In this document: positions 2 through 32,381 of the stretch, piece after piece | Position numbering within the stretch: position 1 is the stretch's first letter | How the letters are laid out: each line of letters opens with the position of its first letter | NCBI GenBank assembly: GCA_964372485.1 | Contig: CAYJQI010000001.1 | Coordinates: 707,829-771,828 of the forward strand | Origin: an uncultured archaeon | Lineage (GTDB): Archaea; Aenigmatarchaeota; Aenigmatarchaeia; CG10238-14; SCSR01 | Reading direction: 5' to 3' | DNA length: 64,000 nt | Notes under the pieces: model-generated | Told to the model about the DNA's origin: nothing | Database searches by the model: none | The model's input: the letters and a program-made list of their open reading frames with translations, nothing else | Program-made: the position numbers and the translations under genes

Positions 2-244
2 ATGACAGATTTTATTGCAAGACAACTTTATCATAAAACAAGTGTTCATACAGAATTATTTCCAAAACCAGAATGGAAATTCCCATCTGCTAAATTAACT
101 GAAAAAATTATCGAATTTAATTCTTCTGTTTGGAACAAAAAGAAGGAAGATGGTATATCATTGAAGGATCCGATAAAAATGGAAATACCGAAAGAATTGA
201 AAAGTTTGGAGAAAGATTTGAAAGCTATGCATAATTTGAGTTAG
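2..244 (+). CDS. 3' end of a gene entering from upstream; the C-terminal tail resembles that of an archaeal class I aminoacyl-tRNA synthetase (Val/Ile/Leu type), unconfirmed
   Basis: The ORF reaches the window edge. The Lys/Glu-rich tail ...SVWNKKKEDGISLKDPIKMEIP... has the character of aaRS C-terminal extensions. No catalytic motif is visible. Confidence 0.3.
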   Translation: MTDFIARQLYHKTSVHTELFPKPEWKFPSAKLTEKIIEFNSSVWNKKKEDGISLKDPIKMEIPKELKSLEKDLKAMHNLS

Positions 245-330: not shown

Positions 331-1503
331 TTGAAAGAGTTGGAGTCTATAAGGGGAAGACATACTGAATTGGTTTCTGTTTATGTTCCTGCTGGGTATA
401 GTTTGAATGAAATTATAGGGCAACTTTATAATGAAAAATCCACGGCAGAGAATATCAAGTCGAAAGCCACGAGAAAAAATGTTGTTGATGCTTTGGAAAA
501 GATAACCCAGCATCTTAGAATTTTCAAAAAGACTCCTGAGAATGGGTTGGTTATTTTCTGTGGAAATGTATCAGAAGTTGAAGGGAATGTTGATATAAAG
601 ATATGGAGTTTCGAACCTCCTGAAAAAATGACTTCGAAGGTTTATTGGTGCGATCAAGTTTTTGTTCTTGAACCTTTGAGAGAAATGGTTGCTGAGAAAG
701 AAGTTTATGGTTTAATTGTAATGGATTCGTCGGAAGCTGATATTGGATTATTGTATGGGAAGAAAATCTTACCGATGAAGCATATTGATTCTCTAGTTGC
801 AGGAAAGGCAATAAAAGGAGGAATGTCACAGCGCAGGTACGACAGAATTCGTGAAGATTCTATAATAGAATATCTGAAAGAACTTGCACATATTGCATCG
901 GAGATTTTTCTAAAACAAAAAGAGTTGAAAGGGATTGTAATTGGTGGGCCTGGTCCGATAAAAGATCAGTTTGTTCGTGAAGAATATCTCAATCATCAAC
1001 TCATACCAAAAATTATTGGTGTAAAGGATATCGGATATACAGGGGATCATGGTTTCGAAGAATTGGTTCAAAGATCACAAGACTTGCTGAAAGAAGCTGC
1101 CGTAATGAAAGAGAGGAATCTAATGCAAAAGTTTCTTGTGGAATTACAGAAAGGTGGGAATATAGTTTATGGATATACTCAAACTATTGAAGCATTGAAT
1201 TTAGGATCGATAGAAAAATTATTAGTGTCAGAAGATTTCGATTGGGTGAGAGTGAAATTGAAATGTGATAATACACACGAGACTGAGAAAGATTTACCTG
1301 TAAGTGAGATTGAAAGACAAACATGTGAAGTTTGTGGACAAGTAATGAAAGTGGAGGATAAGGATTATCTTGGGGAATTATTATCTGAAAAAGCGCAGAA
1401 CTATGGAACTGAAGTTGTTATTATTTCTACTGAAACACCCGAAGGATTACAATTCAAACAATTAGGTGGAATTGGTGGATTTCTCAGATATAGGATACAA
1501 TAA
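331..1503 (+). CDS. prf1: Peptide chain release factor aRF1, with GGQ replaced by GGM
   Basis: N-domain motifs TAENIKSKATRKNV (NIKS) and YWCDQVF (YxCxxxF). The M-domain reads AGKAIKGGMSQRRYDRIRE where aRF1/eRF1 have GGQ. A C-domain Cys-containing mini-domain is present. The track start is TTG, and similarity continues upstream. Confidence 0.9.
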   Translation: MKELESIRGRHTELVSVYVPAGYSLNEIIGQLYNEKSTAENIKSKATRKNVVDALEKITQHLRIFKKTPENGLVIFCGNVSEVEGNVDIKIWSFEPPEKMTSKVYWCDQVFVLEPLREMVAEKEVYGLIVMDSSEADIGLLYGKKILPMKHIDSLVAGKAIKGGMSQRRYDRIREDSIIEYLKELAHIASEIFLKQKELKGIVIGGPGPIKDQFVREEYLNHQLIPKIIGVKDIGYTGDHGFEELVQRSQDLLKEAAVMKERNLMQKFLVELQKGGNIVYGYTQTIEALNLGSIEKLLVSEDFDWVRVKLKCDNTHETEKDLPVSEIERQTCEVCGQVMKVEDKDYLGELLSEKAQNYGTEVVIISTETPEGLQFKQLGGIGGFLRYRIQ

Positions 1504-30971: not shown

Positions 30972-31985
30972 TTAGTTTGGATGTGTTACCATGCACAATA
31001 TATCCGAACCACCCTTGAAGCATTCTTTCGATATTCTCTCTCTCCCTCTAAATGTCAATGTATAGAGATTTAGTTTTCTCCCGAATAATCGTACATTATT
31101 TTTTCTTGGAAGTTTGTGATGATAGAATATTCTAAACCCTAGCAACTTAACTCCATTATGCAACGCAATAATTTTAGATTTATTCGGATGCAATTCAAGT
31201 TTCAATTTCTGCTTCAAGAAATTACCAATTAGCCATTTGTATAACAAAAGTTTGCCTTTAGATCTGTGTAAGATAACAAAATCATCGACATACCGGATAT
31301 AATATTTTGCCTTAAGATTATGTTTGATGTAATAATCCAATTCATTTAGATACACATTAGCAAAGAACTGACTCGTAAGATTTCCAAGAGGCATACCTTT
31401 TCCTTTAATTTTGAAAGTGTGGTTGTCCAAAATTATTTTTATTACCCGAAGAAATTTTTCATCCTTTATCTTCTTTCTTATTACATTCATTAGGATTTCT
31501 ATATCCACTGTATCGAAATAATGTTTTATGTCTGCTTTTAATGCGTAACCAACAATCACATTTTTGTCTTGAAATTTATGAAGCAATTCACCGTTTCTGG
31601 TAACTTTTCTTTTGAAATAGTCAAACCTTTTTAATCCAACATGCGTCCCTTTATTTTTTCTGTTTGCGTAGCTATCATATATGAAAGTCTTCTCAAATAT
31701 TGGTTCGATTATATTGCAAACAGCATGATGTATTACACGATCTCTAAAATCTGAAGCATGGATTACTCTTGTTTTTGGATCGCGTATTATGAATCTCTTG
31801 AGTGGAGATGGATTGTAAATTTGTGTTTCTAATTCTCTCTTTAATTTTCTTATTTCATTGTGCAAATTTGATTCGAACTCTTGAACATACCATTTCTTTG
31901 ATTTGCCTTTCTTCGCTTTCTTGAAAGCTAATAAAAGATTTTCTAATGAACAAAGCTGAATAAAAATATTATCATATGTTTTCAT
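30972..31985 (-). CDS. Diversity-generating retroelement (DGR) reverse transcriptase
   Basis: The RT motifs include IRYVDDFVIL (YxDD). The DGR-typical block is MPLGNLTSQFFANVYLNELD, an [ILV]GxxxSQ where group II intron RTs have QGxxxSP. The N-terminus LENLLLAFKKAKKGK...FRDRVIHHAV resembles other DGR RTs. The adjacent TR/VR pair supports the call. The ATG at 31985 is preferred over the track GTG at 31994. Confidence 0.88.
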   Translation of the reverse strand: MKTYDNIFIQLCSLENLLLAFKKAKKGKSKKWYVQEFESNLHNEIRKLKRELETQIYNPSPLKRFIIRDPKTRVIHASDFRDRVIHHAVCNIIEPIFEKTFIYDSYANRKNKGTHVGLKRFDYFKRKVTRNGELLHKFQDKNVIVGYALKADIKHYFDTVDIEILMNVIRKKIKDEKFLRVIKIILDNHTFKIKGKGMPLGNLTSQFFANVYLNELDYYIKHNLKAKYYIRYVDDFVILHRSKGKLLLYKWLIGNFLKQKLKLELHPNKSKIIALHNGVKLLGFRIFYHHKLPRKNNVRLFGRKLNLYTLTFRGRERISKECFKGGSDILCMVTHPN

Positions 31986-32018
31986 AAAAATCACGGTAGT
32001 GCCACATCCCAGGTTATT

Positions 32019-32176
32019 GGGCGGAAACCAAGACCCGTAATATCGTCTCTAAAGGATTTCGAATTCGATGGCCTCCTGTTCGCATTTACGCCAAGCAACA
32101 TCTTGTTCGCGTTGAATCGCCTTTCACTTTTTCTGCAATCGTGGGGATTCAAGTTCCAATTGCCACGAATGACAGC
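32019..32176 (-). repeat. DGR template repeat (TR), 158 nt
   Basis: It aligns to 32494-32597 with identity at every non-adenine position (coding strand). It is A-rich, with AAT/AAC codons. It shares the A-free 3' segment GGTCTTGGTTTCCGCCC with the VR and lies 33 nt upstream of the RT start. Confidence 0.85.
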
Positions 32177-32381
32177 TAATTTAGCCTAATCCACCAAGTT
32201 TTCACTGAAGCTTCAGGTTTCACACTAGTCACATCTGTTCATTCATCATTGTTACTATCTGTCGCCTCTGTATTTCATGGCTAAACGGGAAAAAAGTTGT
32301 TTAATGCACTATGGACAGGCGTGTAGCCTGGGACTGATGAGCAGACTACCGTAAGTAGAATTTAGTGAAACAGAATAATAA

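Follow-up and report, generated by a model that had tools for sequence, protein, structure and literature searches.

Methionine in place of the GGQ glutamine in the aRF1 of an Aenigmatarchaeota clade, with a possible programmed frameshift at the start of the gene

What the GGQ glutamine does in class I release factors, whether it is a catalyst, a water selector, or a packing element, has been a matter of debate for 25 years, on the strength of sick or lethal mutants. A gene for the archaeal release factor aRF1 near the beginning of a 64,000-nt stretch of AT-rich archaeal DNA (34.8% G+C; contig CAYJQI010000001.1 of assembly GCA_964372485.1, from an uncultured member of the Aenigmatarchaeota; the whole stretch is called the window here) poses the question in a natural form. 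Its codons GGA GGA ATG (817–819, 820–822, and 823–825, forward strand) are in frame with a long open reading frame (ORF) and specify Gly-Gly-Met, within the local peptide KGGMSQRRYDRIRE, at the position of the universal GGQ. Can such a protein still terminate translation, and is it the factor on which the organism relies? Beyond what was described in an initial annotation of this DNA, sequence comparison indicates that the change is clade-wide and recurrent, that its site is an insertion point for inteins, and that the gene has no in-frame start codon.

Judged from its sequence, the window protein is an orthologue of aRF1 in its descent and architecture; in its motif it is a variant. The ORF is open from position 283 to a TAA stop at 1501–1503; the main reading frame, from a conserved Asn codon (AAC) to the stop (298–1503, +), has 401 sense codons. 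All three Pfam domains (eRF1_1, eRF1_2, eRF1_3) are matched, and the NCBIfam equivalog model TIGR03676 (aRF1_eRF1) gives 442.7 bits over the full length of the protein, against a cut-off of 234.7. Related families fit less well: the Pelota model TIGR00111 yields 79.1 bits, below its cut-off of 177.65 and confined to domains 2–3; the acVLRF1 model NF041024 yields 34.3 bits against a cut-off of 125, and the Pfam acVLRF1 match underlies a stronger one to eRF1_2. The best phmmer match in the PDB is the aRF1 structure 4af1 (E 3e-85, 38% identity). Around the motif the alignment is ungapped, with “kggmsqrrydrir” in the window protein opposite “kggqsaqrfarlr” in 4af1 and “rggqsalrfarlr” in human eRF1, so that Met occupies the position of the GGQ glutamine, as first read. 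The stop-codon recognition motifs NIKS (AAT ATC AAG TCG, 451–462, +) and YxCxxxF (YWCDQVF, 643–663, +) are also intact as first described, and so is the C-terminal GGFLRY.

An AlphaFold2 model of the protein (pLDDT 84, with 53 homologues in the alignment) has the aRF1 fold, and its best Foldseek matches are 4af1 (TM 0.78) and then the ribosome-accommodated eRF1 structures 5lzu and 5lzv. In the model, GGM-S ends a 13-residue loop preceding the long helix of domain 2, which starts at the Gln two residues past the Met. With canonical aRF1/eRF1 (TIGR03676; 4af1, 1dt9, 5lzu) the window protein shares three domains, NIKS, YxCxxxF, a Gly-Gly loop of equal length, the Arg residues after the loop, a GILRY-like C-terminal end, and the gene neighborhood seen for the GGQ aRF1 of sister lineages. 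It differs in having Met (Tyr, Phe, or Trp in its relatives) for Gln, and SQxRY for the usual SAxRF: the GGM is followed by Ser-Gln-Arg-Arg-Tyr (826–840, +), with Gln at +2 (829–831) and Tyr at +5 (838–840) relative to the lost Gln, two residues that covary with its loss. The tip of domain 2 carries GGM rather than GGQ, a defining motif of the family, and the protein is classed as a variant for this reason.

The substitution is neither an accident of assembly nor peculiar to this organism. The 120 best matches to the window protein among 5.8 billion proteins (55–100% identity; where named, from metagenome-assembled genomes [MAGs] of Aenigmarchaeota/Aenigmatarchaeota) have GGM in 104 cases, GGY in 10, GGF in four, and GGW in two; none has GGQ. 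One of them (P0001), on an independent contig, is identical to the window protein. This identity, together with the lack of Gln in 120 of 120 nearest homologues, excludes sequencing error or chance; it had been argued at the outset that a single-base error was unlikely since CAA or CAG to ATG requires at least two substitutions, and this is correct. Given the reduced genomes of DPANN archaea and the errors present in MAGs, one might think of an assembly artifact or of a gene decaying in a reduced symbiont genome, and the latter was among the explanations first proposed; with the same motif in over 100 distinct sequences that come from independent samples, a dN/dS of ~0.05 where this is computable (window against L028; L001 against L011), and an uninterrupted frame, both can practically be dismissed, and a degenerating gene is refuted. 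Exactly 401 codons, without any indel, run from the conserved Asn to the stop in each of 11 loci of the GGM clade, and there are no frameshifts or stops within this frame; compared with its nearest relatives, the window gene has a pN of ~0.10 and a saturated pS. By these sequence measures, aRF1 of the GGM clade has been under strong purifying selection since the Gln was replaced. That the replacement is real, clade-wide, and selected can be stated with near certainty.

Selection is also apparent in the loop itself, which is among the best-conserved parts of the protein: both glycines, the length of the loop, and the Arg residues after it are invariant in the GGM clade. Substitutions for the Gln are limited to Met, Phe, Tyr, and Trp, all large hydrophobic residues. 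This restriction, taken with the fixed length and the unchanging Arg residues, points to a specific fit and away from relaxed selection. Two of the contigs carrying a GGM aRF1 are titled “uncultured Gammaproteobacteria bacterium” (L001, CAZPZA010000026.1) and “bacterium” (L004, DAIDAX010000001.1); misbinning or mislabelling of MAG contigs is the probable cause.

Loss of the Gln is not confined to this clade. A search of 1.84 billion cluster representatives returned 150 aRF1s, in which the residue after Gly-Gly is Gln in 121, Trp in 12, Met in eight, Phe in three, Ala in two, and Ser and Glu in one each. A neighbor-joining tree was constructed for 372 aRF1s, with inteins removed by means of a profile alignment. 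The window protein falls in a single clade of 130 sequences (111 Met, 12 Tyr, five Phe, two Trp), and the tree implies ~13 changes from Gln to another residue in archaeal aRF1s, about a dozen of them smaller ones outside the window clade; this count depends on the neighbor-joining tree, in which several events are represented by one metagenomic sequence each. One separate lineage, P0195 and seven relatives (60–100% identity), consistently has GGWSQ[R/K]RFER[L/I]I; this eight-member clade is unrelated to that of the window, and its nearest GGQ relatives include one named as Diapherotrites. No report of natural loss of the GGQ glutamine in aRF1 or eRF1 was found in the literature searched.

The residues accompanying the change recur as well. 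In Fisher tests on raw counts of 50%-identity representatives, uncorrected for phylogeny, Gln+2 is found in 23 of 26 non-Gln sequences and 22 of 118 with GGQ (2e-11), and Tyr+5 in 22 of 26 and 24 of 118, respectively (1e-9). Counted by lineage, 10 of the 13 events have Gln+2. GGQSQ is already present in the closest GGQ relatives of the large clade and of the non-Gln lineages P0148 and P0153, so that Gln+2 looks like a pre-adaptation of a permissive kind (first GGQSA, then GGQSQ, then GGxSQ). The idea that an alignment might place a different glutamine in the GGQ loop, considered from the beginning as an objection to the GGM reading, has some relevance through the strong coupling of Gln+2 to loss of the canonical Gln, but only in part: of the 130 clade members, eight (GGMSA, GGMSS) lack Gln+2, as does one GGWSA protein (P0128), and it cannot be strictly required.

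Inteins single out the same site. Three close homologues of the window protein (P0014, P0018, P0090) contain a mini-intein of ~137 amino acids (aa) at exactly GGM|C...HN|SQRRY, which corresponds to the junction between positions 825 and 826 of the window; L012, L021, and L022 also have an intein at the GGx junction. Of the 150 representatives, 137 are readable, and 56 of these have an intein at this junction, after GGQ, GGM, GGW, or GGF, with larger versions elsewhere. Inteins typically home to indispensable sites, and their insertion exactly here marks the GGx site as functionally critical. No paper on an aRF1 intein was found in the literature searched.

If the GGM protein matters to the cell, it might still do so beside a canonical factor, as a non-hydrolysing paralogue with a regulatory or rescue role. 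The visible part of the genome is 64 kb, and some archaea, Methanosarcina for example, have two aRF1 genes. The genomic position of the gene argues otherwise. Synteny was examined at 13 loci from a genome scan and 10 from a metagenome scan with the window protein. In the 13 genome loci, and in further metagenome loci, aRF1 is preceded by a class I aminoacyl-tRNA synthetase of ~775–786 aa resembling ValRS, the 3′ end of which lies at 2–244 (+) in the window (tRNA-synt_1 and Anticodon_1 domains in the related loci); a convergent TatD gene is usually found 3′ of aRF1. The order ValRS-aRF1-TatD is shared by the GGQ aRF1 genes of two Aenigmatarchaeota MAGs (L008, L009; 44–45% identity), and the ValRS-aRF1 pair also by a Pacearchaeote (L010). 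The GGM gene thus occupies the ancestral aRF1 position, and its product scores as an aRF1 equivalog, which again speaks against a paralogue.

The two families can also be compared by the lengths of the contigs that carry them. With the L008 protein, the nearest GGQ aRF1, as seed, 120 relatives were obtained (119 GGQ, one GGL), and none of these lies on a contig equal in length to any GGM contig, those of near-genome size included, although contigs of 0.69–0.94 Mb occur in both families. The longest contigs are, for example, 727,467, 740,627, and 358,539 nt for the GGQ sister family and 938,630, 783,396, 757,503, and 690,605 nt, among others, for the GGM family; the values never coincide, and no large contig carrying both was seen. 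Within the window, phmmer against all six-frame ORFs detected no second aRF1 or Pelota (best other match, E 0.7). The evidence on copy number covers the 64-kb window and the large contigs of the two families. A factor that bound stop codons without acting would moreover compete with the real one, and human eRF1 mutants in the GGQ glycines are reported to be dominant negative (Frolova 1999). A non-hydrolysing paralogue, which was among the first suggestions, is accordingly unsupported and quite improbable; as far as the window and these large contigs can tell, the GGM protein is by its position the orthologue of ordinary aRF1, and it is probably the sole aRF1 of the organism.

The single GGL protein in the L008-seeded set (P0341, GGLSA) is 85% identical to GGQ relatives and may be either a real intermediate or an error, Leu being one step from both Gln and Met. 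The GGQ sister clade (357–360 aa; L008 9995–11074, L009 2672–3781, P0271–P0333) has ENVKNK or NVKS at the NIKS position. Reassignment of a stop codon was considered and rejected, since all three stops are used in ordinary proportions within the window (TAA 43, TAG 16, TGA 15).

What, then, would a release factor without the Gln do? Unusual termination chemistry, the remaining explanation offered in the initial annotation, is still the best reading. From the substitution, its conservation and recurrence, the orthology of the gene, and the covariation around it, we infer that release activity is retained. The GGM protein is likely to be active as a release factor, and nearly as likely to be the ordinary omnipotent class I factor of the organism, probably its only one.

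The mechanism can be put forward more tentatively. In canonical factors the GGQ glycines take backbone angles open to Gly only; the hydrolytic water is held by the Gln backbone NH, the side-chain carbonyl, and the 2′-OH of A76; the Gln side chain “assumes a packing role”; and when N5-methylated it makes further van der Waals contacts, with U2506, A2451, and A2452 (PMC5799190). In the GGM factor, both glycines, and the third residue through its backbone NH, could still place the loop in the peptidyl-transferase center, where the ribosome would hydrolyse the peptidyl-tRNA. The Met, Phe, Tyr, or Trp side chain would replace N5-methyl-Gln in packing against 23S rRNA U2506, A2451, and 2452, sitting in the cleft that normally takes aminoacyl side chains, and a hydrophobic packing residue would remove the need for Gln methylation. 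Gln+2, in the first turn of the following helix, would be the pre-adaptation that permitted the change, and may assist in holding or selecting the water. This combination of packing and Gln+2 specifically is possible, though less likely than retained activity as such. A motif search of the window and related loci for NPPY-type methyltransferases, aimed at Mtq2/Trm112, found none, and there is no rRNA in the window.

Experiments with bacterial factors give some room for such a mechanism: most Gln substitutions other than Pro reportedly keep substantial hydrolysis in vitro (Shaw & Green 2007; Korostelev 2008; Santos 2013). Passages in PMC5799190 and, for Seit-Nebi 2000, in PMC12440015 describe laboratory Gln mutants of RF1, RF2, and eRF1 in which the side chain is not strictly needed in vitro and point to packing and water selection as its roles. 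These mutants are unfit or lethal in vivo, whereas GGM is the natural, conserved state of a lineage.

Several points weigh against an active GGM factor working in this way. Substitutions of the GGQ glutamine are reported to be lethal or toxic in living yeast and E. coli (Mora 2003; Song 2000). A published account agrees that they are lethal or toxic in vivo, Q182E being toxic (PMC12440015). The placement of a Met or aromatic residue in the A-site cleft is deduced rather than seen, and elsewhere in the genome there may be a divergent paralogue with GGQ, an aVLRF1, or some other hydrolase. To these can be added the dependence of the event count on one tree and the lack of Gln+2 in some members.

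A second possibility is that GGM aRF1 reads stop codons without hydrolysing anything: the ribosome would be split by Pelota-like recruitment of ABCE1, and another enzyme (of aVLRF1 type, of Pth2 type, or unknown) would free the peptide on the large subunit. This agrees with the textbook view of a catalytic Gln, GGQ mutants being lethal in model organisms (PMC12440015), with the usual verdict that members of the aeRF1 superfamily without the Gln are inactive (PMC6514570), and with the retention of all motifs for stop recognition and factor binding in the GGM protein. In Pelota and the inactive baeRF1 families, however, the loop has decayed (PMC6514570), and in GGM aRF1 the Gly-Gly pair, the loop length, and the Arg residues are invariant; replacement by Met, Phe, Tyr, or Trp only again suggests specific fit, and none of the loci examined has a candidate hydrolase adjoining the aRF1 gene. 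This arrangement seems unlikely, if less so than a paralogue. Among known systems, Pelota/Dom34, a paralogue within the aeRF1 group, also enters the A site with no catalytic Gln; it has an Sm-like N domain, neither NIKS nor YxCxxxF, and a degenerate loop, and the window protein fails the Pelota model.

A third possibility would keep canonical chemistry: the Met might be converted after translation to a Gln-like group such as methionine sulfoxide, whose S(=O)-CH3 resembles an amide, possibly under redox control. Met sulfoxide and Gln serve as mutual mimics in protein engineering, and Met is the commonest replacement. Phe, Tyr, and Trp, found in sub-branches and in independent lineages, could not be converted to a Gln mimic, and no enzyme dedicated to such a conversion is known; this explanation is very improbable.

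A parallel to the altered motif is found in the aVLRF1/acVLRF1 rescue factors, for which GGxSQ has been proposed as the catalytic motif (Burroughs and Aravind 2019, PMC6514570). It exactly matches the GGMSQ and GGWSQ of non-Gln aRF1s. Unlike the window protein, an aRF1 orthologue, these factors lack the NIKS codon-reading domain, and in aRF1 Gln+2 is not invariant.

The gene raises a further question, that of where its translation begins. Upstream of the conserved N-terminal helix, neither ATG nor GTG nor TTG occurs in the main frame, and there are in-frame stops at 274–276 and 280–282. The first canonical in-frame codon, TTG at 331, is 16 codons into a conserved sequence that shows synonymous changes between relatives. 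Altogether 19 loci of the GGM clade, the window and 18 related ones, have no in-frame start codon, as a result of which most database homologues are called truncated (390, 387, and 377 aa). At the column where GGY-clade genes have their ATG, the start-less loci always have A-TTT-A[A/G].

Most of these loci have instead a short leader ORF in the −1 frame, of one of two types. In type A (ten loci including the window) it has the form GTG-x-x-ATT-TAA/TAG. The window version is GTG CAT TCT ATT TAA (285–299, +; there is an ATG at 273 in the same frame), followed by C, and its GTG is the putative true start of the gene. The sequence ATT TAA C (294–300, +) would be the frameshift site: a +1 slip onto TTT makes AAC the next codon and continues in the main frame from 298. 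A Shine-Dalgarno-like AGGTG (283–287, +), conserved in related loci, ends 6 nt before the ATT codon. A TATA-box-like TTTTATATAT (245–254, +), presumably a promoter element, is ~30–40 nt upstream of the GTG and is also present in L011 and L028. In two relatives, L014 and L029, the same GTG is in frame and no shift is needed.

Type B comprises six loci (L017, L024, L031, L032, L037, L038) with an ATG-started ORF of 13–18 codons in the −1 frame. The leader peptides are MSSDNKKQIKRESLL (L017), MNLKKQIKGENRL (L037), MMVSKINSARREGRL (L038), MTNRTNSVREGERL (L031), MSNEINDVKRGNLF (L024), and MNGMNSDVEKQFNKEMRL (L032); they are homologous, and the differences at shared residues are synonymous. Each ORF ends in CTT TAA, CTT TAG, CTT TGA, or TTT TAG, at the very point from which the main frame runs on into aRF1, usually with a purine-rich, Shine-Dalgarno-like stretch 4–8 nt upstream. 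A canonical leader start is absent in L002, L004, and L007. Start-less loci named as having a leader ORF also include L001, L003, L011, L012, L015, L022, L027, L028, and L035, beside the six of type B. With the predicted slip onto TTT, the N-termini would be equal in length to those of relatives with ordinary starts.

The arrangement resembles that of E. coli prfB (CUU UGA C): a release-factor gene with an early in-frame stop after [C/U/A]UU, a +1 slip onto UUU, and an upstream purine-rich Shine-Dalgarno-like stretch. The window has the prfB-type layout, with no main-frame start and a −1-frame leader ending NUU + stop + U. It differs from bacterial prfB in that the host is archaeal and the factor omnipotent, that UAA, UAG, and UGA all occur at the site, and that the leader in the window has only four codons. 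A programmed +1 frameshift of this kind, as judged from the sequences, is somewhat favored for the type B loci and evenly poised for the window gene, where initiation on ATT294 with an immediate +1 shift may be a variant of it. If the shift is real, a mechanism that senses stop codons makes regulatory sense only for a product that terminates at them. Such recoding has been reported only for bacterial RF2 and a Mimivirus/Megavirus eRF1-like gene, and is described as absent from archaeal and eukaryotic homologues (PMC3521657); no report of frameshifting in aRF1 was found in the literature searched.

Other starts were considered and set aside. Read-through of the upstream in-frame stops would involve up to three of them within ten codons in the window; in-frame ATT or GTT codons that might serve for initiation are not conserved; and a start at TTG331 would drop 11 conserved residues of helix 1, at a codon absent in L003, L012, and L022. 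Most genes of the window have no Shine-Dalgarno sequence and are preceded by A/T-rich sequence only (for example upstream of 1532, 2221, and 6461), while sites of GGTG type at a spacing of 4–8 nt are found mainly inside operons; this suggests that mRNAs of the window are largely leaderless or have short leaders.

Some further features of the region may be recorded. A Cys-containing insert in the C-terminal domain of the window aRF1 (C..CxxC; 1264–1335, +) is shared with other aRF1s of ~400 aa and is missing from the shorter sister clade. Directly 3′ of aRF1 (1532–2191, +) is a gene for a 219-aa protein with a C-terminal winged-helix domain of OmpR/PhoB type (Trans_reg_C), bacterial in character; it has no recognizable receiver domain, and it is absent from this position in related loci. 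Elsewhere in the window, an RT-16 RNA (Rfam RF03019, 75 bits; 32176–32345, −) adjoins a reverse-transcriptase gene (30972–31994, −; RVT_1, E 2e-20), and a reverse transcriptase with an associated structured RNA is unusual for a DPANN archaeon.

Taken as a whole, the proposal is that several archaeal lineages, foremost the large Aenigmatarchaeota clade, terminate translation without a catalytic Gln; that a Met or aromatic residue imitates, in the A-site cleft, the side chain of an aminoacyl group or of methyl-Gln; that GGxSQ has arisen convergently with VLRF1; and that part of the clade is also autoregulated in the manner of prfB, as the first case in a cellular aRF1/eRF1 gene. All of this together has a little less than an even chance of being correct. 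Several consequences follow for its parts. Natural, ancient, and recurrent replacements of the Gln by Met, Trp, Phe, or Tyr, with their companions Gln+2 and Tyr+5, are evolved variants on which the role of the side chain can be tested. The GGM clade is a test case for bypass of Gln methylation by Mtq2-Trm112, and affords a view of how far the peptidyl-transferase center tolerates such a change. For annotation, calls of “inactive” based on a missing Gln would be wrong for GGM aRF1. The +1 frameshift, if true, would extend RF2-type autoregulation to Archaea and explains the truncated gene calls. And if the reading of the GGM protein as an active factor is true, this branch of the Aenigmatarchaeota probably terminates its proteins by a chemistry that textbooks hold to be forbidden.

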